Assembly (NCBI GenBank): GCA_000004985.1
Contig: GG738871.1
Source: Naegleria gruberi
Taxonomy: Eukaryota
DNA: 64,000 nucleotides
Direction: 5' to 3' (one strand)
A model generated the notes under the pieces. That model made no database searches, was not told the DNA's origin, and saw only the letters and a program-made list of their open reading frames with translations. Position 1 is the first letter of the stretch; every line of letters starts with the position of its first letter. The position numbers and the translations under genes were made by a program. This document shows positions 5,810-51,523 of this stretch, in pieces.

Positions 5810-7141
5810 TTACTTTTTTTTCTTGAAAACATAGTGAACAAACAACATTTGATCTTGAATTTCCTTCTCAAGAACTTCAAATAAAGAGCTAGGCAAATTG
5901 ATTTCATTCATATCTGATCTAACATTAAGAGTATTGTTAATTTCATCGAGTGTAGAGCAAATATAATTCTTTGCAGAGCTGTCAATCACACTACTTGTAG
6001 ATTCTTGCATATCACCAAGAATTTCGAATGCAATTTCAATCTTGGTTTTCTCCAATTTTTGAGTTTCGTCAATGACAGTTGAACCCTTCTTTGGAAGCTT
6101 TGCAATGAGTTCACAACATTCCCTGTAAAAGATACATTTCTCCAATACACTATACTGTTCACCCATATTATTCTTTTCACAATGTTCTCTGAAAAGTTGT
6201 CTCTTTGTTGGATCTTTCATTGTTTCTGCTAATAATTGTGAGTTGAGTGATTGAAGTGTATTCTTTGCTAATCCATCCTTTCTAACCATCATTATAAACA
6301 CAACTATAGTCACTGGAATAATGATAATCAATGAAATTGAAATAATTATCAAATTTGCAATACTTGATCTCACAACATAATCATCGAGAAATTGACCAAC
6401 TGAAGTAACCGATTGATGAAACTTTTCATACTGAGCATTCCAATCATTGAGTGCAGCTTGATACTCTGCCGAATAAAACAAACTCTGAGCTAGTTCAAAT
6501 TGATTGTTTTTCGTATAATTCATCAACATTTCATAATAGGGAAACATTGGAACATTCGAAGTCGAATCAGTTCCATTCAATATAGTCCACTTGAACCCAG
6601 TTGGCAAATTAGTTAAGATATTCTTGAAAGAGTTCTTGAAATTCTTGAGATTTGACGTAAATCTCGAATTGGTGGAATTATCTCTTCCAAGCACTGACCA
6701 CTTCATCGTATCCCATAAAACTGTATTGAAATACTTGGCATCACCACGAGCTATGAGAATTTCAATAGAAGTATTATTGGAAGTCAAATAGGTATTGATT
6801 GTGAGGCCAATCAAGGCAAAGAATGCAATAATATTGAAAAATAAACTTCCCAATGTAATAATTCTGAAATAGTTACATGATCTTTTCAATTTTTTAGTGT
6901 TTTGGGAAACTATCATGGGAAGCTGGTTGTTATTGGTGGAGGAAGATTGGATTTTAGACATGTCAGCTGTTGTGGTGTCCAAAGTTTTGGGAGATGTTGG
7001 ATCAAAGTTTGCTTCATCTTTTAATTCAATTGCTTCATAGTCCATTTCGTCTACTGCCACACAACTGGCATTGTCATCATTGTCTTGTTGAGTTGTGTCA
7101 TCTTGATTGTGTTGTGGAGATTCTTCCATTTCCTGAGACAT
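5810..7141 (-). CDS. two-pass membrane protein: TM1 - ~200 aa N-glycosylation-rich extracellular domain - TM2 - C-terminal RGS (regulator of G-protein signalling) domain
   Basis: Two hydrophobic helices are present: FFNIIAFFALIGLTINTYL and LIIISISLIIIIPVTIVVFIMMV. The C-terminal ~130 aa carry an RGS-like signature (QLFREHCEKNN..EQYSVLEKCIFY...IAFEIL...LFEVLEKEIQDQMLFVHYVF). It is a paralog of 7438..8580. Confidence 0.6.
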   Translation of the reverse strand: MSQEMEESPQHNQDDTTQQDNDDNASCVAVDEMDYEAIELKDEANFDPTSPKTLDTTTADMSKIQSSSTNNNQLPMIVSQNTKKLKRSCNYFRIITLGSLFFNIIAFFALIGLTINTYLTSNNTSIEILIARGDAKYFNTVLWDTMKWSVLGRDNSTNSRFTSNLKNFKNSFKNILTNLPTGFKWTILNGTDSTSNVPMFPYYEMLMNYTKNNQFELAQSLFYSAEYQAALNDWNAQYEKFHQSVTSVGQFLDDYVVRSSIANLIIISISLIIIIPVTIVVFIMMVRKDGLAKNTLQSLNSQLLAETMKDPTKRQLFREHCEKNNMGEQYSVLEKCIFYRECCELIAKLPKKGSTVIDETQKLEKTKIEIAFEILGDMQESTSSVIDSSAKNYICSTLDEINNTLNVRSDMNEINLPSSLFEVLEKEIQDQMLFVHYVFKKKK

Positions 7142-7437
7142 ATTTTTTTAAAGTTATTCGAAAGGGCTTTTATTAATATTAATGAATGACTTGTGGATGT
7201 AAACACCCAGAAATGTGCATGATTATTTCTGTCATCACTTGCCATTAAGAGAAAGCACCTTACTTTGATGTTTTTTATTACGCTCGATAGTTTCGTATGA
7301 AATCTTAATTTGTATCTGCACTGTCTTTAGTTTGCCCATTTTTCTGACACTTTGATAACATCAAGGGCTTTAGATTCTTCACATCTCCCACAATTGACCA
7401 TTTCATTGCATCTCAAAAAAAAAACAAATCAAAAAGA
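7142..7437. promoter_or_regulatory. ~300-bp shared divergent (bidirectional) promoter region between the two paralogous TM-RGS genes
   Basis: The start codons lie at 7141 (minus) and 7438 (plus). The intervening segment is non-coding and AT-rich. Confidence 0.4.
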
Positions 7438-8580
7438 ATGGCTCAAACTATTGGCGGGAAATCTGCAGCTGCTTTCACACAAACCTCCAGAACATCAAAA
7501 TTTAGTAAAGGAACAATTTCTTCATTGAGTTTTAAAATTCGATTGTGTTGTGGGGTTTTAGAACTTGACTGCATGCGATTACTGTCTCTAATTAGTTTAT
7601 TTATTAACATTTCAGCATTTATTATTGTTGCTGGTGTAACCATTGACATGTTTTCGATAACTAATCAATCCTATTCGAAAGTATTAATTGCGAGGGGAGA
7701 TGCTTTAAATTCAAATGAACTAATGATTGATATTGTAAGAGTTGGAGCATTATCCAGAAATAATTCAGAGATTGACAAGTGGTATTCGTATAGAGATCAG
7801 ACAATTGAGGCATTGAATCGATTTTTCAAATATGTTGATCCATCTGTCAATACTACAAATTTCAATTCTGGAAGTAGAAATGGACGAGACATGTATACGA
7901 TTCCATTGATGGAGGAAATTATTTCACACCTGAAAAATCAACAATACGAAAGTGCACTAACTTTGTATCAGGGATTTACTTATCAGAATTTAACTGCCAC
8001 CTGGTTTAAACAACAATCGGCTGTGTTTAATTTGGTAAAAACAGAAGGAAGAGGACAAGATGATTTAGTTTTGAATTCGTCTACTTCAAATTTGGTGGTG
8101 GTTAGTGTTTGTCTTGCAATTGTTATTCCAATTGTTGTTCTAATGACTTGTTTGAATATTCGAAGGGAATCAACCATATCCGAAACTCTTCATAATTCTA
8201 GAGCTATTCAATTATTGGATACAATGAATGATCCAATGTATTCTAAATTCTTCAAACAAGCATGTGTTTCAGAGAAAATGTTGGATTCGTACATGTTACT
8301 TTCTCAAATTCTGGAATTTAATCAAATTCAAGACGAAACTGAGCAGAGAAATAAGGCTCAGTATATTTATCAAACCTATCTTGCAACTACAAGAAGGGTT
8401 CCATTCAAGTTTGTAAGCAAAACACTAATTGCCAACATTTACAAGGATTTACAGGAATCATCATTGCCAGAAAAGGCAATTCGAGTCAGTGTGTTTAGAG
8501 AACTTGAGGCGTGCATTTGTGAGGAATTAATTCCGGTTCATAGGATGTTTATGAAGACAATTAAGGATACTGGTAAATAA
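7438..8580 (+). CDS. paralogous two-pass membrane sensor-RGS protein (TM1 - extracellular domain - TM2 - RGS domain)
   Basis: It has the same architecture as 5810..7141. Conserved blocks are LIARGDA, NQQYESALTLYQGFTYQNLTATW versus NNQFELAQSLFYSAEYQAALNDW, the TM2 helix, and (D/E)TM(N/K)DP immediately before the RGS domain (AQYIYQTYLATT..VPFKF...VSVFRELEACICEELIPVHRMFMKT). Confidence 0.6.
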   Translation: MAQTIGGKSAAAFTQTSRTSKFSKGTISSLSFKIRLCCGVLELDCMRLLSLISLFINISAFIIVAGVTIDMFSITNQSYSKVLIARGDALNSNELMIDIVRVGALSRNNSEIDKWYSYRDQTIEALNRFFKYVDPSVNTTNFNSGSRNGRDMYTIPLMEEIISHLKNQQYESALTLYQGFTYQNLTATWFKQQSAVFNLVKTEGRGQDDLVLNSSTSNLVVVSVCLAIVIPIVVLMTCLNIRRESTISETLHNSRAIQLLDTMNDPMYSKFFKQACVSEKMLDSYMLLSQILEFNQIQDETEQRNKAQYIYQTYLATTRRVPFKFVSKTLIANIYKDLQESSLPEKAIRVSVFRELEACICEELIPVHRMFMKTIKDTGK

Positions 8581-10566: not shown

Positions 10567-12234
10567 TTACTTGAAGAGCTTTTCGAAGGTTTCGAAACCA
10601 CCAGCAAGATTCTTAACATTTTCCAAACCATTTTCGTTCAAAATTCTTTGGGCCATATATCCTCTCATACCAATTTTACAATATGTTACAATAGTCTTAT
10701 CCTTTGGAAGTTCAGAAATCTTTTCTCTCAATTGTTCAATTGGGATATGGATAGCACCTTCAAAGTGACCAGATTGGAATTCTCTTGGAGTTCTAACGTC
10801 AACCAAAGCATATTGATCTCTGTTAGCCAAAACTTCTGGAATGTGAACCATTCTTTGTTCACCTCGCAAGAGACCACTAGCAATGAAGCCAATCATGTTG
10901 ACTGGATCCTTAGCAGAACCATATTGTGGTGAGTAGGCAAGTTCTGATTCTTCCAAATCAAAGACAGTCATACCACCTTGAATAGCCATGGCGATAGCAT
11001 TAATTCTATTGGCAATACCATTGTGTTCACCAACAATTTGAGCACCCAAAATCTTACCATAATTTTCCTTAGAAGTGTCGAAAATCAATTTGAGAATCAT
11101 TCTCTTAGCACCTGGATAATAACCAGCATGGTCATTGACAGGAGTGTAAACCTTTTCATAAGTTGTGTATCCAACTCTTTGGAGACTCTTTTCACTGGCA
11201 CCAGTACCAGCAATAGTATAGTTGAAACCACCCATAATACTTGTACCTTGGGCACCTCTGAATGAATCTGGAGTCTTACCAAACATATGGTTGACTGCAA
11301 TTCTTCCTTGTCTGTTAGCAATACCTGCCAATGGAATTTGAGTCCTATTCTTCAAAACGAAATCTTCAATTTCAGTGTTGTCACCACAAGCATAAATATC
11401 AGGATCAGAAGTTTGACAGTTTTCATTAATTACAATACCACCTCTTGGACCAACCTTCAAACCAGATTCGACAGCCAATTTGTTTTCTGGCTTAACACCA
11501 ACAGATAAAAGGACGAAATCAGCATTAACAACCTTTCCACTTTCAAGATGAACATTAACAGTTCCATTTTCACCTTCTCCGAATTTAACACACTTTTCTT
11601 TCAATAATAAATTAACACCACTAGCCTTATAATCTTCCATCAATGGTTGAACCATTTCCTTATCCATTGGTGGCATAATTTGATCCAATAATTCAATAAT
11701 GCTGACATTGACACCAGCATGAGTGATAGCTTCAGCAACTTCACATCCAATGAAACCACCTCCGATGATAACACCCTTCTTTCCTGGAACAATGTGTTGC
11801 TTAATCTTGTCCATATCTTCCAATGAACGTAAAATGTGAATAAGTGGATTATTAATACCTTCCCATGGTGGAATAATTGGTTCAGCACCAGTTGAAAGAA
11901 CTAGCTTATCATAATTTTCGGAATATTCAGATTCCTTAGCCTTGCAAATAACTTGCTTGTTGGCTCTATCGATTTTGATGACTTCAGTTTCAACTCTGAC
12001 ATCAATGTTGTATCTTTTTTTTAAAGTATCAACTCCGGTAACAATCAAACTGTCTCTGGAAGCAATTTGACCACCAAGAAAATATGGCATACCACAGTTA
12101 GCAAATGAAGGATTCTTTCCCTTTTCGAACAAGACAATAGAAACCTTTTCGCAAATTCTTCTAAGTCTAGTGGCAGCAGAAGCACCTCCAGCGACACCAC
12201 CAACAACTACAACTTTGTGAATCAATGATGACAT
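10567..12234 (-). CDS. bacterial-type CoA-disulfide reductase / NADH oxidase (pyridine nucleotide-disulfide oxidoreductase) fused to a C-terminal rhodanese domain; intronless
   Basis: An FAD-binding GxGxxG is present (VVVVGGVAGGASAA). The redox-active Cys motif is SFANCGMPY. A second Rossmann motif is present (GVIIGGGFIGCE). The C-terminal rhodanese module has an active-site CKIGMRG loop. The ORF is 555 aa and uninterrupted. Confidence 0.8.
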   Translation of the reverse strand: MSSLIHKVVVVGGVAGGASAATRLRRICEKVSIVLFEKGKNPSFANCGMPYFLGGQIASRDSLIVTGVDTLKKRYNIDVRVETEVIKIDRANKQVICKAKESEYSENYDKLVLSTGAEPIIPPWEGINNPLIHILRSLEDMDKIKQHIVPGKKGVIIGGGFIGCEVAEAITHAGVNVSIIELLDQIMPPMDKEMVQPLMEDYKASGVNLLLKEKCVKFGEGENGTVNVHLESGKVVNADFVLLSVGVKPENKLAVESGLKVGPRGGIVINENCQTSDPDIYACGDNTEIEDFVLKNRTQIPLAGIANRQGRIAVNHMFGKTPDSFRGAQGTSIMGGFNYTIAGTGASEKSLQRVGYTTYEKVYTPVNDHAGYYPGAKRMILKLIFDTSKENYGKILGAQIVGEHNGIANRINAIAMAIQGGMTVFDLEESELAYSPQYGSAKDPVNMIGFIASGLLRGEQRMVHIPEVLANRDQYALVDVRTPREFQSGHFEGAIHIPIEQLREKISELPKDKTIVTYCKIGMRGYMAQRILNENGLENVKNLAGGFETFEKLFK

Positions 12235-18969: not shown

Positions 18970-19614
18970 TTAAACAAGGGATTTTACTTTTTCAAAATAG
19001 GGAGAAATACTCCAAGATTGAGAATAGAAAGCCAGAGTGGTGTTGCTGAGAGAAGTACTTCCTTGTGAATCGTCTTTCTTCTTTGATTGATTTTCATTCA
19101 AAAATTCCTTTCGGTCTGTTGTTGTCATTCGTTTGCATTCTGAAAGTATGAGTTCTTTCATGGTGTAATCCTTTTGTAACAATTCTATTATTGATTGAAG
19201 ATACAGATTTTGTTTCTCAGTTGTGCAGGTTGACAGTAAAGTAATCAATTCCTGTAAATATCCATTCATTGTGACATGTATTAAATTATTCAATCTGGTA
19301 ACAAGATTAAGAATTTCCGAATATACTTTTCTGGTCACATTCTGTTTTAAAACATCTCCTATTACCATTGGACATTGTTGAAATACTCCCCAGTAAGGAC
19401 TCTCCATATAGTCTTCTTCAATTAATGATTTTTCCAGACCCGATAAAATATCATTTCCATCCAAAATCGTTTCTCCCCATTTTTGAATTATTAATTTAAC
19501 TTTTGGTAGTATCAACCCGAGTGGATTTAAACTTGATGTATTGTTATTCTTACTATTTACATATTGTTCCGATTGTTTGTGTTGTTGCTGATTATTGTTG
19601 GCTTTTAAACTCAT
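18970..19614 (-). CDS. hypothetical protein, poly-N/Q N-terminus, helical-repeat C-terminus
   Basis: ORF of 214 aa. Its ATG overlaps the stop of the upstream CWC25-like ORF in the sequence ATGA. I recognised no domain. Confidence 0.4.
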   Translation of the reverse strand: MSLKANNNQQQHKQSEQYVNSKNNNTSSLNPLGLILPKVKLIIQKWGETILDGNDILSGLEKSLIEEDYMESPYWGVFQQCPMVIGDVLKQNVTRKVYSEILNLVTRLNNLIHVTMNGYLQELITLLSTCTTEKQNLYLQSIIELLQKDYTMKELILSECKRMTTTDRKEFLNENQSKKKDDSQGSTSLSNTTLAFYSQSWSISPYFEKVKSLV

Positions 19615-20201
19615 TTTTTCTTTTCTTTCAAAAACTTTTTTGTCTTTTCATCTTCTCTTTTACTTCTTTCTAAATATTCTTTCATGAGATCTTCATCCAT
19701 GGATGATGATTTTGTGGAGTTGTTAGAGGATGATTTCTTCTTTTCTGATGATTTTTGAGTGGCTTGATCTACTACTTTGGATTGACTTGGTGTTATAGGA
19801 GTATTGGTAATAATATTATTTTGAGAATTTACCACTTTGTGAAATAATGATTTTGAGTCATAGTTCAATACATCTTTAAAGGTGGTAATTTTAGAGTTGT
19901 TAATCAATGATTCTTCAGTTTTCTTCTTTTCAATATTTAAATTTGAAGGTGAAGTAGTGGTAGGATCCTTCCGAGAGTGATCAATCACCTTAACTTGTTC
20001 AATTGTTGAATTTGATTTTACTTTTTTAAATTGTTCATAATTTTCTTCCGATTGTTCCTTCTTTCTCTTTCGTTCTTGTTCTTTTTGTTTTTCATTTTCA
20101 ATAGATTTAATCTTGTTTACTTTTTCTCTGTTTTTTTCTGAAGAGATGTGCCACGATTTTTTAGAGAGCAAATCAGACATTTTTTTATTATTTAAATTCA
20201 A
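19611..20201 (-). CDS. CWC25-like pre-mRNA splicing factor (Cir_N domain); likely start at second ATG (20180)
   Basis: The N-terminus MSDLLSKKSWHISSEKNREKVNKIK..E matches the CWC25 N-terminal signature (LKKSWHP...N.EKVWK.EQ). The remainder is K/E/R-rich. Confidence 0.55.
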   Translation of the reverse strand: MNLNNKKMSDLLSKKSWHISSEKNREKVNKIKSIENEKQKEQERKRKKEQSEENYEQFKKVKSNSTIEQVKVIDHSRKDPTTTSPSNLNIEKKKTEESLINNSKITTFKDVLNYDSKSLFHKVVNSQNNIITNTPITPSQSKVVDQATQKSSEKKKSSSNNSTKSSSMDEDLMKEYLERSKREDEKTKKFLKEKKK

Positions 20202-20232
20202 TAAATATTACAATTTCCTTAATTTACAATAC

Positions 20233-21173
20233 TTAATTCAATTTGATATTGTTACTTTCCTTTTCATAGACAGCATCTTCATCAGATCCTCTCAAAATTA
20301 AACGATCATCACTATCTGGAATGTCAACAATTAAAGAGTGGAATGTGAAACGATTTCTAATAATATTTAAAATTCCACTCTTTCTAGAAGCATCACAAGA
20401 AATCATGGCAGTCTTTTTGTTTGGATCTTGAAGTTGGAAAATGAGTTGAACTCTTTTTGGTTTCCAGAATTGAAGCTTTCTAATAAGTGGAACATCGTGA
20501 GCATTATTAAAATCTGGATAAGTGTATGAGTAAGCTCTGAATTTTCCAGGAGTGAGTGGAGTGAGCATATTATCTCTGACACTCTTATTGGCTAAAACCT
20601 TTTTAACAGCAGCTTTATAAACAGCTGATGGACTAATACTGAATGAAACAACTGCCAAATAACTAAGTCCACATGAAATTAAACCAGTGAAGAAACCAGT
20701 GTAAAATGAAACTGTAGCAACATTCTTAAATGTGATAGAACTCAACCAATCAGTAATTTCCCAAACTATTCAACTATTTAATATTAAAATCCAATATACA
20801 TACCAATCCACAAAACACCAAATATTGCTGTTGAAATGATGGCATATCTTACAAAGTACATTTTCCAAAATTTAACAAGAAGTGGAATGTTAATATCTGG
20901 TCTATCTTCATCCATAATACGTTCCTTATCGTTGAAAACTTCAACAGGGACAATTTCCTTTTCCAAATCCCTTTCTTCTTCATAAATAAATAATTTTTCA
21001 TCCTTCTTTTGTGGAGTTTTATTTTCTTGTTTTACTTGATTATTCTTTGAATGGAATGAAGCCACAATAAAAGATCTGTTATTAATATGTACAGATGTAA
21101 TTTTTGTTGTTGGTGATGAAAAGAGTGATGGCTTGGCTGTTTTATGGGCCAAGGAAATTACACGTTTGAACAT
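20233..21173 (-). CDS. hypothetical double-pass membrane protein with N-terminal presequence-like region (possible mitochondrial); exons 20804..21173 and 20233..20765
   Basis: MFKRVISLAHKTAKPSLF is basic and amphipathic, like a targeting sequence. Two TM helices flank a 38-nt intron (GTATGT...gaatag), in phase 1. Confidence 0.5.
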
Positions 21174-21281
21174 TTTTTTTGATTGAATAAAGTTCAATGA
21201 TCTTAAATTATTAAATTGATAATAATAATATTTGCATTGCAATGATATAAATTATTTAATTTCCTATTAGTTTAAACAAAA

Positions 21282-22275
21282 TTATTCAGTCTTCTTAGCT
21301 TTTTCAGCCTTCTTCTTAGCAATTGCTCTAGCATTTTGTTGTCTCAAATTAAAGAACAAAATAAAGAATGAAATAACAATGAAATCACCTGACAATGAAC
21401 CAATCAATGAACCAGTACAAGTGTTTCCCTTAGGTCTTTCCCAGAAGATTTCAACATATGAGTAAGCAGTGAAAGCAGCAGCATCAAAAATGAATTGAGT
21501 TAATTGAATATCAGTCAAATACATCTTCCACCAGACATCAAAACCTAAAGTGACCTTCATGTAGTAATAGTACATAACAATGTGAACAAAAGTATTCAAA
21601 ATAATTGGAATCCATTGTCCAGTACCTCCACTGTACAATCCATAATAACAAATTGACATTGTGGTGACATGGTGATAGGTGTGAATAAATCTGAGTCTAG
21701 ATCTTCTGATAACAAGGAGGAAAGTATCAAAAAGTTCTACATATTTAGACAAGTAATACTATTATTTAAAATTTAAAAATTCAATTTAAAAATTCAATCA
21801 TGTGAAAACATACCATGTAGGTCCAGAATGGAATATAACCAACGTTATACTTATGTTCAGGGTCACACAACAAACTGTAGAAACCATCCTTCAATCCAAT
21901 AGAAGTAACTTCAAACAACAATCCAAAGAAACAGACAAGGGAAATAACAGTCATATTCAAATTATGTAAAAAGGCTAAAACCTTCAAAATCTTTTGTACA
22001 AAGGTTGGATTCTTATGTTCTTGTTCCATTTCCTCTCTGGACTTGGTACCAAGAATAAAACTAAGAGTATAGGAAACAACAAGATATCCGACCAAAGTCA
22101 AACCAATAGATGGTAAACTGGAGAGAGGAGCAGCATCTTGGTCCCAGTTAAATTTGCCACCAACTTCGAGGTAGGTTTCATGAATAGAATTCAATGAAGT
22201 AATATCGAGCTTGTGATAAGCATCAACAAAAGTCTGCAATGTTGTGAGTGGTAACTCTGGATGTGTGGAAGACAT
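21282..22275 (-). CDS. ELO family fatty-acid elongase; exons 21814..22275 and 21282..21758
   Basis: The His box LRFIHTYHH, the MYYYY motif and multiple TM helices are present. A 55-nt intron (21759..21813) has donor ATG|GTATGT. Confidence 0.85.
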
Positions 22276-37821: not shown

Positions 37822-40800
37822 ATGTCTTTAAAAAAAAATATTCAGATATTGGTGGATCGTTTAGATTCAACACTCTCTGTGAATTCATCCTCCGATCATC
37901 ATCAAGATCTTAGTAATTATCCTCTTCATATTGAAGATCAATCAGAGGATAACAATAATATTGAACAAGAATTAATAACAGAGAGTCCAACATCTATTTC
38001 AAGACATCAACTCATGTTTAATAGTGGTGGTGCTAATAATAATCACAATCATAATCATAATGGTATGGATCATGATGATGAATTTGATGAAGATTCATTA
38101 TTATTATCCAACAATAATGGAAGTGTAAATAATTATCAAGATGACGACGTTGTGTTAAATTCCTATTTGAATGAAAGGACAATTGGTGATTTAACAAAGA
38201 AACCCTATATTCCATTAAAACAAGATAGAAAGAAAATGACTCGATTACAAAATATTTATTACATGTTTTTACAATACATGATGTTTACTTGGAAGGAAGT
38301 TTCAAAACGTAAAGTTTCATATTTGATTGGAACTGCGAGTTGTTTTGTTGTAGTTTGGATGATTATGGTTTCAGTTTCTGCACTTTCACAAGTTCCTTTG
38401 GTGTTTATTCGTTTGGCAGAGTTACAAGTTGGTGAATTTGATTTTAAATTGAAAACTGGCATTAATATGGCAGGTATTTCACTAAATTATACAAGAATTA
38501 ATTTACAAATTCAAAATGCTACAAGAGGTAATCCTGAAATGACTCAACAATTTTCATATCATTCACCTAGATTTACATTTAGTACAAGGGCATTTACAAA
38601 TTGTGAAAGTATAACACAAGATTTATCTATTTTTAAATATCAAGATTTTAAATGGATGTATAATTCAACAAGTAGTTCATGTGGTTTGAGAGAAAATCAA
38701 AAATCCATTCAATCATCCGATTATAATAATGGACAATATTGTGTTCCAATTGATTGTAAAAAAGTTGCTGAAAGATTATCACTTTATTTAATTGATACTG
38801 ATAAAGAACGTAGAATGCAATTCGGAAGAACTTATCCATATTCAAAATTGGAAAAGGGGAAGGCAATTATTGGTTCTGGTCTTGCTGAAACATTATCTGT
38901 TAAAAAAGGTGATACTATTCTATTGAATATTCAAACAATGAATAGCTTTACTGGACCATATCGTGATTCTCACATGATTGGTTATGTCTATCCAAAGGCA
39001 AAAGGATCATTGGAAAAATTAATACCAAAACAAATACAAGAGCTATTGGATAGTAATGAATTTCATGAATTTGAAAGAAAGAATATAAGATCACAAGCAA
39101 TTCTCAATGAAATACTTGAAGAGAAATATTCTGATTTATTCGATGAGGATCAAGCATTGAAAAATAGAAGACTTACATTCAATGGTGGTGCCACTTACAT
39201 TCCAGTAATTGTTGAAGATGTTGCCAATAATGCATATGGAAAATATCAATCAACGAATTTGGAAAATGCAATTATTATGGAATATGATTCATTACTTGCT
39301 CATGTTGCAGAGTTTTTGAATGAAGATCTCTTTTCCAAATCAGAAAAGTCAACTCTTTCACAATTAGATTTGTATGATTATGCCAGTGAAGTTTATGTTA
39401 ATTATCCACCAAATAGATTAACTGCCTATAATGAAAATGATTACAAAGTGATTAGAGAAAAGATTACAAAATTTGCTTCCACTTCAATGTATTTAATGGG
39501 TTTTAATCAACTTTCATCAAGTTTCCCAATATTGGAAATGATGGAAGTTACACAATTTTTTGCCCTCTTTGTTGGTTTAATTATTTCAATCATTTTAATT
39601 GTTTTGTGTTTACTTTCTGTTGTATTAATTTACAGTTTGTTAATGATTAATGTTGAAAATAGAAGATATGAAATGGGTTTATTGAGAATGATTGGTTTAA
39701 AGAGAAGAAATCTTGTTGAACTCATTCTAGTTCAAGCCATGTGGTATGGTATTCCAGCTTGGATTTTAGGGTTAATCATTGGTCAATTATCTTATTCTGT
39801 AGTTGCAATTTTGCTTAGTACTCAATTGGAAGCAAACGTTTCATATATTGTCTCTGGTGAAGCTTTTGCATTGGCAACATTCCTTGGCTTGACTGTTCCT
39901 GTTTTATCTGCCATTTTACCAATCAAGACAGCCCTCGGTCAAAATTTACACGATTCACTCGATACTCAAAGATCAGGAACAGCAGCTGTTAAATATTCAA
40001 TTGAAAGAGCTGAGGGAGAATCCATCTCATGGACATCTATTGTTATGGGTGTTGTTGGTATAATTTTTGGTTTTTCAGTTTATTATGTCATGCCACTCAG
40101 TATGCTTACATTTAATATTACAATTATGATGTACATGTTTATGGCTGTTATTTTGGCCATGTTATTGGGTTTAGTTTTATTGAGTTTGAATTTTGAAAAT
40201 ATTATTGAATTTATTGTAGTTTTATTTACCATTAGAATATTTGAAAAAGTATCAGTTATTGATCTAGTTGAAAAGAATCTAATTGCTCATCGTGAGAGAA
40301 ATAGAAAGACAACTCTAATGTTTTCATTGAGTTTGGGTTTTATTATATTTTCATCTGTTTTATTCAATACACAAATTACAGCATTCAAATATAATGTAAT
40401 GAGAGGTGCAGGAACAGAACTCATTGTTGGTACCAGTAGATTGAATGCATTTGCTCAGAATCCAAATATCATTGGAACTATACAGGAATTTGCTGATAAT
40501 AATCCTAATTGGTTTGTTGGATCCACTTATTGGACATTTGATTTAACAAGAGTTACATCACCAATTGATAATACTAAAATAAGAACTGATGGTGGTCTTG
40601 TTAATAATGATATTTATATTCGTGCCATTGCTCCAAACTTTTTTAATATTACAAATTCAAAGTTTTTAAGAATTGATGAAAGAATTCAACCTGAAAATAA
40701 GACAGTATTTACAAAATATAAGAGTAATTTAGATGAATATTTATATACTGTTGAAGGAAGTAGTCAATTAATATTAGGAACTTATTTTAAATCAAATTTA

Positions 40801-41592
40801 GGAGTTAATATCAAAGATACAGCTGTTCTTCAAATTACTGAATCAACTTCAAGAATGCCAAATTATAGATATGAATTATTCCAAGTTGGTGCTTTTTTGA
40901 GTGCATGTCCAGTAGCTCTCTATTCTGAATTTCCAAGATTTGGAACACAAAATTTACTTGTCAGTGTTCCAACCTATTTACGTCTCCTTGGAAAGAATTC
41001 AAATTATACAGCAACAAGTCTTCCAATTGATGCTGTCTTTTTAAAATTAACTGAAAATGCAAAGAATAATAAGGCTGAATTTAGAAAGTTGAGATCTACT
41101 CTCCAACGTGTCATTAGTCCATTCCCAGGACTATTCATTAGAGATATTAGTCAAGAATTAGATCCAGTTGAAATTGCAGTTTCAGTCATGAACTTTTTCT
41201 TCCTCTTCACAGCAGCAGTTGCCCTCGTCATTTGTTTCTTTAGTTTAATTTCTAGCATGTATAGTAATATTAATTCACAAGCAAAGGAAATTGGAATTTT
41301 AAGAGCTATTGGAATGAAGAAATTTGCAATTATTAGAGTTTACATTTATGAGGCATTTGTTTTGATATCAGCTGCTGCAGTTTCTGGTGTGGCCATTGGT
41401 TTGGCTATTGGACAAACTATGGCTATGCAAAATACCTTAATTACAGAATTACCAATTGATTTTGTATTTCCTTATCAAATTGTTGCACTTGTACTTGGAA
41501 GTGCAATTATTTTTAGTTTCTTTTCTTCCTTCTTCCCTATTTATTCACTTGTTAATATGCCAATTGTTAGCGTTTTGAAAAAACTTAATTAA
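37822..41592 (+). CDS. bacterial-type duplicated FtsX/MacB-like ABC-transporter permease (two [TM - large extracytoplasmic domain - 3-4 TM FtsX] units), with eukaryote-style low-complexity N-terminal extension; intronless
   Basis: FtsX-like modules end each half: ...LLRMIGLKRRNLVELILVQAMWYGIPAWILGLIIGQ... and ...GILRAIGMKKFAIIRVYIYEAFVLISAAAVSGVAIGLAIGQ... Each is preceded by a ~350-aa hydrophilic loop. The N-terminal 170 aa are N/H/D-rich. The ORF is 1256 aa. Confidence 0.7.
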   Translation: MSLKKNIQILVDRLDSTLSVNSSSDHHQDLSNYPLHIEDQSEDNNNIEQELITESPTSISRHQLMFNSGGANNNHNHNHNGMDHDDEFDEDSLLLSNNNGSVNNYQDDDVVLNSYLNERTIGDLTKKPYIPLKQDRKKMTRLQNIYYMFLQYMMFTWKEVSKRKVSYLIGTASCFVVVWMIMVSVSALSQVPLVFIRLAELQVGEFDFKLKTGINMAGISLNYTRINLQIQNATRGNPEMTQQFSYHSPRFTFSTRAFTNCESITQDLSIFKYQDFKWMYNSTSSSCGLRENQKSIQSSDYNNGQYCVPIDCKKVAERLSLYLIDTDKERRMQFGRTYPYSKLEKGKAIIGSGLAETLSVKKGDTILLNIQTMNSFTGPYRDSHMIGYVYPKAKGSLEKLIPKQIQELLDSNEFHEFERKNIRSQAILNEILEEKYSDLFDEDQALKNRRLTFNGGATYIPVIVEDVANNAYGKYQSTNLENAIIMEYDSLLAHVAEFLNEDLFSKSEKSTLSQLDLYDYASEVYVNYPPNRLTAYNENDYKVIREKITKFASTSMYLMGFNQLSSSFPILEMMEVTQFFALFVGLIISIILIVLCLLSVVLIYSLLMINVENRRYEMGLLRMIGLKRRNLVELILVQAMWYGIPAWILGLIIGQLSYSVVAILLSTQLEANVSYIVSGEAFALATFLGLTVPVLSAILPIKTALGQNLHDSLDTQRSGTAAVKYSIERAEGESISWTSIVMGVVGIIFGFSVYYVMPLSMLTFNITIMMYMFMAVILAMLLGLVLLSLNFENIIEFIVVLFTIRIFEKVSVIDLVEKNLIAHRERNRKTTLMFSLSLGFIIFSSVLFNTQITAFKYNVMRGAGTELIVGTSRLNAFAQNPNIIGTIQEFADNNPNWFVGSTYWTFDLTRVTSPIDNTKIRTDGGLVNNDIYIRAIAPNFFNITNSKFLRIDERIQPENKTVFTKYKSNLDEYLYTVEGSSQLILGTYFKSNLGVNIKDTAVLQITESTSRMPNYRYELFQVGAFLSACPVALYSEFPRFGTQNLLVSVPTYLRLLGKNSNYTATSLPIDAVFLKLTENAKNNKAEFRKLRSTLQRVISPFPGLFIRDISQELDPVEIAVSVMNFFFLFTAAVALVICFFSLISSMYSNINSQAKEIGILRAIGMKKFAIIRVYIYEAFVLISAAAVSGVAIGLAIGQTMAMQNTLITELPIDFVFPYQIVALVLGSAIIFSFFSSFFPIYSLVNMPIVSVLKKLN

Positions 41593-46151: not shown

Positions 46152-48414
46152 ATGAATACAATCTTCTTCAACGTTGAAAATAAGCCTATCGCAGCTTTTG
46201 CTGTTGTTTACTTGAGTGAACAAAAAGTAAACTTTAAAGTTTCAAAGAATCCAGGTATCACTTTGGCTGAATCTGCCAGTGGGTAGGTGTCTTTCTTTAT
46301 TATTATTTTTATAATAATAATAATAATTAATTTTATTATTGTTGTTGATGATGATTAAAAAGTGTGAGAGGAAACTTTAATGTTGCTCAAGTTCTTTCAA
46401 AGAATACTAAACTCGCAGCTCAAAATACTGATGACGTTTTTGTTGCTTTTGAAACTGCTAGTGAAATTGCTAAATCAGGACTTATTGAAGAATTGGATGT
46501 TTGCATGCAAAGATTAGATGCTTTACTTACAACCAAGACATATTTCTCTGGTGAAGATTTGTCTGTTTGTGATTTGTGTATTTATGAAAGTCTTAAACAT
46601 CACAAATTAGTTATGGGATATTTGAAGAGATTTGAAAAATCAATTCCAAATGTTGTTCGTTATTTCTTCACTATTCATAGAAATCCAAAGATTCAACAAG
46701 TTGTTAAAATTTTGGATAATGCTGCTAAAGCTATGACTAGTACTGATGAAGTTTTAAATCCAACTCCTGCTGCAAGGATAACAAGTCAAATTGTGACAAG
46801 ACTGAAAAGAAGGAATCTCAACCTGAAATTAATTTGGAACTTCCACATGCTCAAATGGGTAAAGTTGTTACCAGATTCCCACCTGAAGCATCTGGTTTCC
46901 TTCATATTGGTCACGCTAAGGCTGCTTTGATGAATAATTATTTTGCTAAGAAATATAATGGTAAACTTATTATGAGATTTGATGATACTAATCCAGATAA
47001 GGAAAGAGAAGAATATGAACATGCTATTCTCTCAGATTTGGAAAGTTTAGGTGTTAAACCTGATATTCATGTTCGTTCATCTGATCACTTTGATAAGTGT
47101 ATTGAATTTGCTGAACAATTGATTAGAGAAGGAAAGGCTTATATGGATGATACTGCAGTTGAAGAATTGAGAAGAATGAAAATGGAAGGTATTGAATCTG
47201 CTAACAGAAATAATTCTGTTGATAAGAATATGGAAATGTGGAAGGAATTACTTGCTGGTACTGAAAATGGAAAGAAGTCAGTCCTCAGAGCTAAGATTGA
47301 TATGAAATCATTGAATAAGACTATGCGTGATCCTGTTCTTTTCAGAAGTAAGGATAAACCTCATCCAAAACTTGGTGATAAGTATAAGGCATATCCAACT
47401 TATGACTTTGTTTGTCCAGTTGTTGACAGTTTGGATGGTGTTACTCATGCTTTGAGAACTTCTGAATATAACGATAGAAATGAACAATACTATTGGATTA
47501 TTGATGCTTTGGGTATTAGAAAGCCATTCTTGTACGATTTCAGTAGATTGAACTTTGCTAATACTGTCATGTCTAAGCGTAAATTGCAAAAGATTGTTGA
47601 TATTGGAGTTGTTGAAGGATGGAATGATCCTCGTTTCCCAACTGTTCAAGGTCTCTTACGTAGAGGTTTGACTGTTGAAGCTTTGTACAATTTCATTTTG
47701 GAACAAGGTGCTTCTCGTAACGTTGTTACTATTCAATGGGAAAAGTTGTGGGCTGAAAATAAGAAGGTTATTGATCCAAAGGTTCCAAGATATTGTGCTA
47801 TTGAAAAGACTGATATTGTTAAATTCCATTTATCAAATGGTCCACAAACTATGGAATCAAAGGAAAATGCAAAGCACAAGAAGAATGATTCTCTTGGTAA
47901 GAAGACTACCTATTATACCAATACCATTTATTTGGATAGAGAAGATGCTGCTGCCATTGAACAAAATGAAGAAGTTACTTTGATGGATTGGGGTAATGCT
48001 ATTATTCAAGAAATTGTTAAGGATGACAGTGGTAAGGTTGTTGAATTGAAGGGTGTTTTGCACTTGGAAGGTGACTTTAAGAAGACTAAGAAGAAGTTGA
48101 CTTGGTTGCCAGTTAACCCAGAAGTTAATACTGAAAATGTTCAAATTGTTCATTTCGGTCATTTGATTAACAAGATTTCTTTATCTTCTGATGATAATAT
48201 TGAAGATGTTGTTAATCGTAATTCCAAGACTGTTACTACTTCAATTGGTGATCATAATTTAAAGTCATTGAAGAAGGGTGATATTATTCAATTGGAAAGA
48301 AGAGGTTATTTCATTTGTGATGTTCCATTTGATGGAAAGTCATTGACTTTATTCAATATTCCAGATAGTGTTTCAACAAAGACAACTGCTGCTGCTGCTT
48401 CTACTTCTAAATAA
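46152..48414 (+). CDS. cytoplasmic glutamyl-tRNA synthetase (class I) with N-terminal GST-like domain; intron 46283..46362, plus an apparent -1 frame change near 46750..46830
   Basis: HIGH is present (FLHIGHAKAA) and KMSKS is present (VMSKRKL). The GST-C-like region has the ...FSGEDLSVCDLCIY... core. Exon 1 MNTIFFNV...AESASG ends at GG|GTAGGT. The catalytic frame (frame 1) opens only after stops at ~46745, while the upstream GST frame (frame 2) runs on to 46930. Confidence 0.8.
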
Positions 48415-48418
48415 AAAA

Positions 48419-51400
48419 ATGATAAACTCTAAACCAAAGAGTTTACTTCAAATTGCTAAAGATCGGAAAAACAAATTATCATCACAATCTTCTCAATCAT
48501 CTCAATCATCACAAACATCAAATGATAATAATAACACTAATTCATCATCATCATTAACAATATTGAATCATTCTAGTAATACTAGTAGTAATAACAATGT
48601 TAATACTACTAATAATATTGGAAATAATAGTACTACTACTTCTACTAATAAGACGACATCAACATGTAAATTAATAATTAAACCCAAATCTTCCATTAGA
48701 CTCTATTCCGAAACTGTTGATTTATCATTTGAATATTCAAGTGATAAAGAAAGTGACAATGACGATATTCAAATCATTCATACTCCAGTTAATAAGAAAC
48801 TTTCAACTCCTTCATCATCACTAACATCACTATCATCAACTACTTCCACTCCATCATCACTTTTAAAATCACTATCATTACTACCAAATAATAATAATAA
48901 CATGACCACTTTAAAAACCACAACTAAGAATGAAATATCAAATAATAATAATAATTTATCATCATCATTATCAACATCTACAAATTTAATAGTAGAAACA
49001 TATAGTTCATTATTAGAAGATTTAACTCAACAAGATGATGATATAAATAGTAATTCATTAAATATAAATAGTAATTCATTAAATATTAAAGAACCATTAA
49101 TTAAAAAAAGAAAACAATTTAAAATTCCAAGTTTTTACATGACAGATGAAGAAATTAAACATGACATTTCTTTATCTAAAACAATAATTCCAATTTTAAA
49201 TATTCAAGATAAATTTTCAATTCATTTTACAAAACCATTTTGGACAATTTATAAAGATGGAAATGAAATTCTATTATTAGATTTTAGAAAACCAATATTT
49301 ACAAATTTATTATTTTTAAAATTAATTTATTATTTTAATTTTAATAAAACTAAAATAATTGAAAAATCTAAATTTATACATTCAATTAAAGATTTAATTA
49401 TTTTATTAAAACCATATAGTACTTTATTAGTAAATAATGAAAATTTAGAACAATTAAAAAAGGAAATTGAAATTATTTTAAATGAAGATTTAAAAAATAA
49501 TTTTATAGAAAATGAAAATGTAAAATATGTAAATAATTTTCAATATTTAATTTTAGAATATTTAAATACAAATATTCATAAATTTAAAAATACTAAAAAA
49601 TCTAGAAATTTAAGAAAATTAAGAATGTGTGAAGAATTACTAAAAAAGGAATTTAATTCTAAATTTATAAAAAGTTTTGAAAAATCTGAAAATTCATTTT
49701 ATTCAGATTTTAATTTTAATTTATATGATTTCATGTCAATTTATTTTAATAAGGAAAAATTTGAATATTTAAATCTAAATGAAATTGATTTTAATAATTC
49801 CATAAAAGAATTTCATAAAATTTTAAATGAACTCATCATTTCAACTATATACTATAATAAGGGTCAATATATAGGTGATATTATAGCAACAAATTTATTA
49901 AAAAAATCCATAAAAAATAATACTACTATATATGGCAGTGAATACCAAAATAGTAATAATGATGAAAAACAACACCAATATTATATTAATAGTGATAATA
50001 GTGATAATGATGATAGTGATGATAGTGATAGTGATGAAGAAGAAGAAGAAGAAGAAAATGAAATAATTCTAGATAGTCATATTCCACATGGATTTGGAAG
50101 TTGGAAATTTATAGAAGAAAATAATGAAATTTTCTATAAAGGGGAATGGAAAAAAGGGAAAAAGGAAGGATTTGGTATTTTACAAACATTTGAAATATTA
50201 TATGAAGGAGAATGGAAAGAGAATGAAATGAATGGATTTGGAATATTTAAAATATTAAATGGATATCATAAAGGTAGTATTTATTATGGTAATTTTAAAA
50301 AAGGAAAGAGAAATGGATTTGGAATTCAATTTTATAAATATGAAGGAAATAATGAAATATTAAAAGATGATTTGAATGAATTTAATGAATTTTATAGAGG
50401 TGAATGGTTAAATGATGTTAGAAATGGAAAAGGTGAATTTAAATCAAAATATGAATGGAAATTGGGAGAATGGAAAAAACATGAATTTAAAAATGGAATT
50501 TTACTAATTAAGGAATGTTTAGAAATTCAAGATTCAATCATTACAAATTGTATTCATTCACAAATAGAAATTGAAAAATATTCAAAAAAAACAAAAAAAT
50601 CTCAAATTCCTTCAACTATACTTCCATTTATATTTTCATTAGATAATTTAGATAAATTAACAGTTGTAGATGCAATTATTGCATATGGTAATCAATCTAA
50701 ATCACCTAAACGTACAATTTATAATGGTTATTGTTTTAGATCAAAATTGGAAAGTCGTTGGGCTAAATTCTTTGAATGTTGTGGAATTGAATATCAATAC
50801 GAATGTAAAACTTTTATTTTAAAAGATGGAACATCATATACTCCTGATTTTTATTTACCTTTTCTCAATTTTTGGATTGAAATTAAACCAAATTATCCAA
50901 GTGAAGAAGAAAGAGTTAAAGCTCAATTATTAAGTTTTGTTTTACAAAAACAGACTAGTAATAATAATCAACATAATGAATTGACAGAATTTGAAAAGAA
51001 ATATGAAAGATATTTACAATCAAATCCAAGAATTTTCATTTTATATGGAGATGTTAGTGCTCCATTTATTAAGAAATTTCAATCAGGAGGAATGGCAATT
51101 GAATTTTTCAAAACAGATCAACAAGAAAATTCTATTCAGAATAGAACAAATAAGAGAATTACACCTCCAAGGAGTGGCAATACTACTTCTACTACCAGTA
51201 ATCCAATTAGAGAATCTGTTCTATTTAATACTACTGAACCATTGGGCTGGTGTCAATGTCATCATTGTGGTAAAATTTCACTTGAATATAGATGTAAACC
51301 CAAGTGTTGTACTAACAAGACAGCAGATAATAGTACTGCTTCGACAAGTTTAGTTGATTCAGTGGTGACATCAGAGCTTGGTCCAACTTTGAGTAATGCT

Positions 51401-51523
51401 TATTATGCAGTTACCAAATTATCGTTTGATGAATGGAGAGTGAGAAATGAAAATACATTCTTTAACAGTATAACACAAGAGATTGAAATTACAACAGAAA
51501 AGAAACGAAGTAAATTCTTTTAA
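48419..51523 (+). CDS. MORN-repeat protein with C-terminal PD-(D/E)xK nuclease-like domain and Cys/His cluster; long N/S-rich N-terminus
   Basis: MORN repeats (YKGEWKKGKKEGFGI, YEGEWKENEMNGFGI, YYGNFKKGKRNGFGI, YRGEWLNDVRNGKGE) are present. The nuclease-like core is SKLESRWAKFFECCGIEYQYE...YTPDFYLP...WIEIKP, giving E ... PD ... E-x-K. A CHHC-like cluster follows (WCQCHHCGKISLEYRCKPKCC). Confidence 0.6.
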   Translation: MINSKPKSLLQIAKDRKNKLSSQSSQSSQSSQTSNDNNNTNSSSSLTILNHSSNTSSNNNVNTTNNIGNNSTTTSTNKTTSTCKLIIKPKSSIRLYSETVDLSFEYSSDKESDNDDIQIIHTPVNKKLSTPSSSLTSLSSTTSTPSSLLKSLSLLPNNNNNMTTLKTTTKNEISNNNNNLSSSLSTSTNLIVETYSSLLEDLTQQDDDINSNSLNINSNSLNIKEPLIKKRKQFKIPSFYMTDEEIKHDISLSKTIIPILNIQDKFSIHFTKPFWTIYKDGNEILLLDFRKPIFTNLLFLKLIYYFNFNKTKIIEKSKFIHSIKDLIILLKPYSTLLVNNENLEQLKKEIEIILNEDLKNNFIENENVKYVNNFQYLILEYLNTNIHKFKNTKKSRNLRKLRMCEELLKKEFNSKFIKSFEKSENSFYSDFNFNLYDFMSIYFNKEKFEYLNLNEIDFNNSIKEFHKILNELIISTIYYNKGQYIGDIIATNLLKKSIKNNTTIYGSEYQNSNNDEKQHQYYINSDNSDNDDSDDSDSDEEEEEEENEIILDSHIPHGFGSWKFIEENNEIFYKGEWKKGKKEGFGILQTFEILYEGEWKENEMNGFGIFKILNGYHKGSIYYGNFKKGKRNGFGIQFYKYEGNNEILKDDLNEFNEFYRGEWLNDVRNGKGEFKSKYEWKLGEWKKHEFKNGILLIKECLEIQDSIITNCIHSQIEIEKYSKKTKKSQIPSTILPFIFSLDNLDKLTVVDAIIAYGNQSKSPKRTIYNGYCFRSKLESRWAKFFECCGIEYQYECKTFILKDGTSYTPDFYLPFLNFWIEIKPNYPSEEERVKAQLLSFVLQKQTSNNNQHNELTEFEKKYERYLQSNPRIFILYGDVSAPFIKKFQSGGMAIEFFKTDQQENSIQNRTNKRITPPRSGNTTSTTSNPIRESVLFNTTEPLGWCQCHHCGKISLEYRCKPKCCTNKTADNSTASTSLVDSVVTSELGPTLSNAYYAVTKLSFDEWRVRNENTFFNSITQEIEITTEKKRSKFF

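Follow-up and report, generated by a model that had tools for sequence, protein, structure and literature searches.

Two divergent genes of Naegleria gruberi encode two-pass receptor-like proteins with a bacterial-type sensor and a probably non-catalytic RGS-fold domain

The 64,000-nucleotide stretch of Naegleria gruberi DNA analysed here (contig GG738871.1; hereafter the window) harbors two divergent genes, A and B (Table 1), whose products we interpret, with moderate confidence, as anciently diverged two-pass receptors of a heterolobosean family, in which a bacterial-type sensor is combined with a regulator of G-protein signalling (RGS) fold that is probably non-catalytic. The two-domain architecture of sensor and RGS and its bacterial homology are well supported. 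An annotation made beforehand from the letters of the DNA (the sequence-only reading) had described a head-to-head pair of paralogues around a shared spacer of ~300 bp, and this description held: both genes are intact open reading frames (ORFs) without introns at the positions it gave, they lie on one 417,575-bp scaffold, and BLASTP aligns their products with 26% identity across ~360 aa (E 5e-34); a promoter role of the spacer is presumed. In UniRef both proteins are labelled "RGS domain-containing protein", uncharacterised and with no further annotation.

The topology of A and B had been likened to that of bacterial chemoreceptors, and the analogy turned out to be literal: the loop between the two transmembrane (TM) segments is homologous to the periplasmic four-helix-bundle sensor of bacterial methyl-accepting chemotaxis proteins (MCPs) and histidine kinases. 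An exhaustive profile search against 1.8 billion proteins returned 95 cluster representatives at 50% identity, and its three weakest significant matches (E 1e-4 to 6e-4), identified by Pfam as a bacterial MCP, a histidine kinase and a STAS protein, aligned through the loop region only. The module formed by TM1, sensor and TM2 measures 191-205 aa across eukaryotic and bacterial members (191-195 in the three bacterial proteins, ~199 in the eukaryotic ones), and the modules of both groups are collinear, with the blocks "LIARGD" and "G...EA...S.EY....Y" in common. With the TM segments excluded, HHalign aligned a eukaryote-only and a bacteria-only profile over 125 collinear columns, with a probability of 98.8% and an E value of 5.7e-17. 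A search with the sensor only, which returned bacterial proteins only (the organism names of eukaryotic members were taken from cluster records), added 27 bacterial relatives from Omnitrophica, Sulfuricella, Sulfuritalea and Sideroxyarcus, a few of them with kinase or PAS modules. No Pfam family, including 4HB_MCP_1, TarH, HBM, CHASE3, NIT and PilJ, matched the loop of A, of B or of the bacterial homologues, and NCBIfam matched output modules only, with no model covering the sensor. Judged from these comparisons, homology with a so far unnamed sensor found in bacterial chemoreceptors and histidine kinases is well supported, and the module was most likely acquired from bacteria. Many of the bacterial homologues P0099-P0106 are short proteins (284-349 aa) that combine a coiled coil with a conserved end, "MN..M..REERILELK.EV", and lack an output domain that could be recognised; in NCBIfam this end aligns weakly with the linker of NahK, a kinase responsive to NO (nitric oxide), and with a response regulator of the NosR family.

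The fold of the ectodomain, which the sequence-only reading had not recognised, was a four-helix bundle upon structure prediction and matched solved ligand-binding domains in a fold search. In both proteins TM1 is followed by an all-helical domain of ~145-150 aa and by TM2, with helix 4 running on into TM2. The AlphaFold model of B is confident from TM1 on, with predicted local distance difference test (pLDDT) values of 82-95 in the loop, and that of A, obtained from a 41-sequence alignment, reaches 80-96 at residues 90-443; the N-termini of both proteins are disordered. Each protein possesses two strong hydrophobic segments only and two TM helices in its model, and the proposed two-pass, chemoreceptor-like topology is thus real as far as hydropathy and AlphaFold can tell. 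The extracellular domain is shorter than the ~190 aa initially suggested, as the loop between the TM segments measures 143-147 aa and a value of ~199 aa is reached only when both TM segments are counted.

The orientation in the membrane is indicated by several independent signals that agree. Among 72 complete family members, lysine plus arginine average 4.25 per 15 residues after TM2 vs. 1.25 before it, and 1.72 before TM1 vs. 0.86 after it; N-x-S/T sequons reach 1.84-fold the shuffle expectation in the loop vs. 1.01-fold elsewhere, and the loop is depleted in cysteine (0.37 vs. 1.56 per 100 aa). Moreover, a TCCGxxEL consensus abuts TM1 on its N-terminal side in most members (LCCGVLELDC in B, residues 35-46, 7540-7575), while the juxtamembrane position of A holds a single Cys only. 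Given the charge asymmetry, the loop-only sequon enrichment, the cysteine depletion and the Cys-Cys motif before TM1, the loop most likely faces the cell exterior and the RGS end the cytoplasm, as had been proposed. TCCGxxEL itself is possibly a juxtamembrane palmitoylation site, which would be compatible with a cytoplasmic N-terminus. The loops had also been described as dense in N-x-S/T, and each indeed carries five such sites, but shuffled sequences would hold 2.5 (B) and 3.5 (A), a weak excess when taken for either protein alone. The sequon hot-spots of the family (B residues 107-109 and 169) both map to that end of the modelled bundle which is farthest from the membrane: the turn between helices 1 and 2 has sequons in 35 of the 72 members, summed over three neighbouring columns, and the turn between helices 3 and 4, with a "GN(F/Y)(S/T)" motif, in 24. 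The bacterial counterparts of these positions read TGD..W and QGK..EA.

Sensor and RGS domain are connected by a path of fixed length. A TM2 proline is found in 85 of 87 members and precedes a conserved Thr of RGS helix alpha1 by exactly 31 residues in 83 of the 87, B included; on the other side, its distance to a conserved Tyr where sensor helix 4 begins is exactly 49 residues in 70 of 80 members. The sensor interior ranges between 87 and 161 residues. AlphaFold predicts sensor helix 4, TM2 and the linker as one continuous helix entering the RGS domain (residues 180-264 in B, 225-309 in A). A fixed-length path, predicted as a single helix and devoid of HAMP, is what a rigid piston or rotation coupling would need, and coupling of this kind may be supposed on the basis of the models.

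The motifs highlighted by the sequence-only reading were largely found where expected. Both proteins contain LIARGDA (A 129-135, B 83-89) as well as the N(Q/N)Q(Y/F)E.A..L(Y/F)....YQ block, the latter with small deviations from the form first noted, while (D/E)TM(N/K)DP exists (DTMNDP at B 261-266, ETMKDP at A 306-311) but belongs to RGS helix alpha1 instead of preceding the domain. The RGD tripeptide falls within a motif of helix 1 that the bacterial homologues have as well (L.LSGDI / L.ALRGSI). We give hardly any credence to the view that the loop serves adhesion or matrix binding via RGD, rather than sensing a small ligand, and RGD was rejected as an adhesion motif: the tripeptide does occur in A, B and several relatives, but it opens helix 1 within a motif inherited from bacteria, whose homologues read SGD, SGK or RGS, many family members carry RGN, RAD, FGD or other variants, and in both AlphaFold models the position is helical and membrane-proximal, not in an exposed loop.

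The C-terminal domains of A and B both have the nine-helix RGS fold, and the top structural matches of the domain include Axin, GRK2 and SNX13/25. The Pfam RGS model (PF00615), suggested beforehand as a check on both C-termini, barely accepts B (24.1 bits vs. a cutoff of 23.9) and misses A (11.1 bits, E 0.54); it matches four of five close paralogues (best E 4.5e-7), and a hidden Markov model (HMM) obtained from canonical-RGS family members and RGS4, A and B excluded, scores A at 58 and B at 40 bits. Contact with G-alpha was evaluated by aligning 84 family C-terminal regions with RGS4 (numbering validated on chain 1agr_E) at S85, E87, N88, N128, D163 and R167, the G-alpha contacts known from the structure of RGS4 with Gi-alpha1. 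In this order A reads M/E/Q/gap/F/V and B reads M/D/S/F/P/M; five of the six scored positions are replaced in each protein, several by hydrophobic residues or Pro, and three N. gruberi paralogues are equally altered. The family as a whole is bimodal, since at least five contacts are kept in 37 of the 84 members and at most one in 41, with the core Phe168 retained in 75. An RGS10 alignment and the canonical-only HMM agree on the contact residues where they cover them, and the contacts in the second half of the RGS domain of B were read from the E-INS-i alignment together with a gapless by-eye alignment anchored on LF..LE....H.xF. Such a bimodal rather than graded retention suggests a functional switch and, with five of six contacts replaced, A and B are most likely not classical GTPase-activating proteins (GAPs). 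The idea of a sensor wired directly to a GAP for G-alpha, put forward for A and B by the sequence-only reading, consequently suits the canonical members but probably not the two proteins for which it was conceived, and to judge from their residues A and B are probably non-canonical RGS-homology receptors maintained by selection.

Evidence for selection comes from an environmental contig (L001), 99.4% identical and with the same head-to-head arrangement, which differs by eight synonymous and one nonsynonymous changes in A, by one of each in B, and by one substitution and one 1-bp indel in the spacer. Nine synonymous vs. two nonsynonymous differences indicate purifying selection (assuming that ~25% of random changes would be synonymous, P is ~1e-4 for at least 9 of 11), and a pseudogene reading was rejected on these grounds. 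The loss of the canonical contacts and the score of A below the Pfam RGS threshold could be taken to mean that A and B descend from active receptor-GAPs and are now non-functional and decaying, which seems very improbable considering, besides the allele differences, that both frames are intact and full-length, that identical substitutions are kept in paralogues with only 53-66% identity, that the motifs and spacing of sensor and coupling helix are fully preserved and that the AlphaFold models are confident. More can be said for the original proposal that both proteins are active one-component receptor-GAPs in spite of their non-canonical contacts, although to judge from their sequences we hold it to be unlikely. 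Some RGS proteins with Ser in place of Asn128 stay active, the RGS fold is found in both copies, tethered at the membrane where G-alpha sits, both genes are under purifying selection, and the canonical members of the family very probably work in this way, as do the 7TM-RGS proteins of Naegleria, which act as GAPs on self-activating G-alpha (PMC9283941). What speaks against it is the simultaneous change of five of six contacts, several to hydrophobic residues or Pro, the sharply bimodal distribution in the family, and the presence among the top structural matches of RGS-homology domains with such substitutions (Axin, GRK2, SNX13/25).

According to the interpretation we favor, of A and B as probably non-catalytic receptors, a ligand would bind the glycosylated outer four-helix bundle and displace or rotate the TM2 helix, as with bacterial chemoreceptors, and this movement would alter how the membrane-tethered RGS domain meets its partner. 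Members with RGS4-type contacts, roughly half of the family, would plausibly be ligand-controlled GAPs for Naegleria G-alpha, whereas A and B may bind G-alpha or another partner via a different surface as non-catalytic RGS-homology receptors, or alternatively may form dimers, either with catalytic paralogues or with each other, and in this way modulate the catalytic ones. The receptor-GAP idea is attractive for the canonical half because Naegleria possesses self-activating G-alpha subunits that are under receptor-RGS control (PMC9283941). As a tentative extension, which we regard as a serious possibility rather than a probable one, an ancestral heterolobosean may have captured a bacterial sensor and joined it by a rigid helix to an RGS domain, giving rise, next to 7TM-RGS, to a second large class of receptor-RGS proteins ("2TM-RGS"), about half of which, A and B included, would later have become GAP-dead. 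Proteins of this class would read extracellular chemicals by a bacterial-style piston or rotation and write them onto heterotrimeric G proteins, and the GAP-dead members could bind G-alpha under ligand control or be partners that regulate the catalytic ones.

A recent inverted duplication was rejected as the source of the pairing of A and B, since their distance (0.79) resembles that of any two family members and they do not form sister clades. Two further genes, the A-like NAEGRDRAFT_78142 and the B-like 78141, carry successive locus tags on a single scaffold of 712,659 bp and are each 53% identical to their counterpart in the window; successive tags, common scaffold and equal divergence suggest a block duplication of the pair. 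Still, it is close to an even call, in our judgement leaning slightly to the negative, that the head-to-head order is meaningless and that A and B are independent members made neighbors by local duplication within the family. They are not sisters, they stand as far from each other as from most of the family, and a repeat search in the 296-bp spacer found nothing notable and no distinctive shared element. Further members are clustered too: NAEGRDRAFT_66405 and 66407 (P0088, P0093) are two locus tags apart on one 502-kb scaffold, and the environmental P0064 and P0067 each lie on an 8,874-bp ENA contig, possibly one and the same, so that the family seems as a rule to expand by local duplication. 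Against a meaningless order, the 78142/78141 pair fits a unit duplicated and retained as such, and the arrangement recurs in L001, although at 99.4% identity this says little about conservation of the pair.

Several considerations weigh against our interpretation and its extensions. Since certain RGS proteins tolerate substitutions of single contacts, contact loss is no proof of GAP loss, and the divergent G-alpha subunits of Naegleria could use other contacts; the alignment of B near RGS4 N128 is less certain than elsewhere, even though no Asn occurs within 8 residues. Topology, glycosylation, ligand binding, dimerisation and G-alpha interaction are all things that we infer. The block duplication is suggested by locus tags, a shared scaffold length and equal divergence, and a functional partnership of A and B, for instance as a heterodimer, is possible.

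The family comprises at least 95 sequence clusters at 50% identity, several members being annotated merely as "predicted protein". A phylogenetic profile across Amoebozoa had been proposed, but N. gruberi is a heterolobosean and all named members sampled belong to Heterolobosea. At least 16 of them are from N. gruberi, and the others come from N. lovaniensis, Willaertia magna and Heterolobosea sp. BB2. N. fowleri had no representative among the sampled members, though its relatives carry the family. In one W. magna protein (P0026, KAL9656166.1, 1,302 aa) a complete sensor-TM2-RGS module occupies the N-terminus; behind it come one more hydrophobic segment, a large region rich in Asn and a long C-terminal part without Pfam match. 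In P0052 (1,144 aa) the module is C-terminal, preceded by ~640 low-complexity residues.

Table 1. Coordinates of genes A and B and of their protein segments in the window; sidedness of the segments is as predicted.
Feature	Positions	Strand	Description	Basis
Gene A (NAEGRDRAFT_79971)	5810..7141	-	443 aa + stop, single exon	ORF list; 100% identity to N. gruberi protein
A helical linker 286-299 and RGS-fold domain ~300-443	5813..6286	-	Cytoplasmic; without canonical G-alpha contact residues	
A TM2, residues 259-285, with near-invariant Pro276	6287..6367	-	Within helix 225-309	Kyte-Doolittle max 3.17
A extracellular four-helix-bundle sensor, residues 116-258	6368..6796	-	Bacterial type, without Cys, 5 sequons	
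A TM1, residues 93-115	6797..6865	-	K/R 4 in 15 aa before, 0 after	Kyte-Doolittle max 2.26
A N-terminus, residues 1-87	6881..7141	-	Cytoplasmic, disordered, acidic, Ser/Thr/Gln-rich	AlphaFold pLDDT <50 at 1-32, 36-87
Spacer between divergent start codons	7142..7437		296 bp; presumed shared promoter region	
Gene B (NAEGRDRAFT_49545, UniProt D2VH58)	7438..8580	+	380 aa + stop, single exon	ORF list; exact protein match
B N-terminus, residues 1-46	7438..7575	+	Cytoplasmic, ends in LCCGVLELDC	pLDDT <50 at 1-43
B TM1, residues 47-69	7576..7644	+		Kyte-Doolittle max 2.42
B extracellular four-helix-bundle sensor, residues 70-216	7645..8085	+	Without Cys, 5 sequons	
B TM2, residues 217-239, with Pro231	8086..8154	+	Within helix 180-264	Kyte-Doolittle max 3.02
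B helical linker 240-254 and RGS-fold domain ~255-380	8155..8577	+	Cytoplasmic; without canonical G-alpha contact residues	

The window is gene-dense, with a GC content of ~31%, and the genes flanking the pair are ordinary eukaryotic ones (ZNF598-like, Sec1, AP-4 epsilon, ABC1 kinase, ELO). The ELO fatty-acid elongase (21282-22275, minus strand) is represented by two adjoining ORFs matching profile positions 8-95 and 95-234; as these are successive parts of the profile, the ORFs make up a single gene with a short intron near 21753-21780, and the same-strand run of ORFs at 18970-22275 therefore consists at least partly of exons and is no tandem array. A 1,256-aa ORF at 37822-41592 (plus strand) has two matches to the C-terminal domain of bacterial-type FtsX-like permeases (PF02687, E 2.8e-28); permeases of the MacB/FtsX type are unusual for a eukaryotic nuclear genome, and this ORF may be another bacterial acquisition. 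The 555-aa ORF at 10567-12234 (minus strand) joins a pyridine nucleotide-disulphide oxidoreductase to a C-terminal rhodanese domain, an architecture typical for bacterial CoA-disulfide or persulfide reductases. Finally, a 1,051-aa MORN-repeat ORF (48368-51523, plus strand) sits in the AT-richest part of the window (GC 0.247 at 48-52 kb), and its match to Phage_endo_I is weak and below threshold (E 2.7e-4, 21 bits vs. a cutoff of 29.1).

Known systems share single traits with A and B. The 7TM-RGS proteins (Arabidopsis AtRGS1, N. fowleri 7TM RGS1-4, Trichomonas) likewise place a receptor-like membrane part before a C-terminal cytoplasmic RGS domain, and they are found in the same lineage, in which G-alpha can be self-activating and control is exerted mainly through GAPs (PMC9283941). 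They possess a 7TM bundle, whereas the present family has two TM helices and a bacterial-type four-helix-bundle ectodomain joined to RGS, unlike 7TM-RGS, by a rigid helix of fixed length; neither A nor B has seven TM helices upstream of RGS, with two hydrophobic segments each and the models in agreement. The G-alpha contacts used by characterised 7TM-RGS domains are missing in A and B, while the canonical members of the family probably act like 7TM-RGS. Bacterial chemoreceptors and kinases (Tar/Tsr, MCP2201, Vc1313, HK9, Adeh_2942 and the unnamed family P0095-P0125) have the same succession of TM1, ~145-aa bundle and TM2, and with the unnamed family homology is detectable, including the helix-1 "L..RG(D/S)" and the "G...EA...S.EY....Y" motifs. 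Their outputs are however HAMP, MCP signalling, HisKA/HATPase, PAS or STAS modules, as opposed to a eukaryotic RGS fold without HAMP; the N-glycosylation sequons of the loop also set the present family apart, and the TM2 proline is confined to the eukaryotic family. The RGS-PX sorting nexins SNX13/14/25 resemble A and B in having two N-terminal TM helices and a non-GAP RGS-homology domain, but they contain PXA, PX and PXC domains, to which A and B gave no Pfam match even at E up to 10. In sorting nexins the TM helices form a short hairpin anchor and are not known to enclose a sensor domain. Axin, GRK2 and the rgRGS of p115/PDZ-RhoGEF also have RGS-homology domains without the canonical GAP contacts, yet these proteins are soluble, bear other partner domains and have no extracellular sensor attached. 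The paper on the G proteins of N. fowleri counts 28 7TM-RGS proteins and 79 further RGS proteins and describes no two-pass class, and de Mendoza et al. (2014) report that RGS is frequently fused to at least one TM helix, with nothing further. In the literature searched no description of the two-pass sensor-RGS architecture was found, which does not exclude an earlier one.

Fusions of a receptor with RGS are thought to be the main control of self-activating G proteins in plants and many protists, and to our knowledge the seven-transmembrane type alone has been studied. If our interpretation is true, a second scaffold exists, and the logic of receptor-RGS control would have been invented at least twice; it would further imply that a prokaryotic mechanism of transmembrane signalling can drive a purely eukaryotic output. 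The clean split of contact residues within the family would constitute a natural experiment on RGS domains turning into non-catalytic scaffolds. The carriers of the family include relatives of the fatal pathogen N. fowleri, and the sensor domain, being small, Cys-free and of a type that is routinely expressed in bacteria and screened for ligands, offers a practical route to what Naegleria senses.

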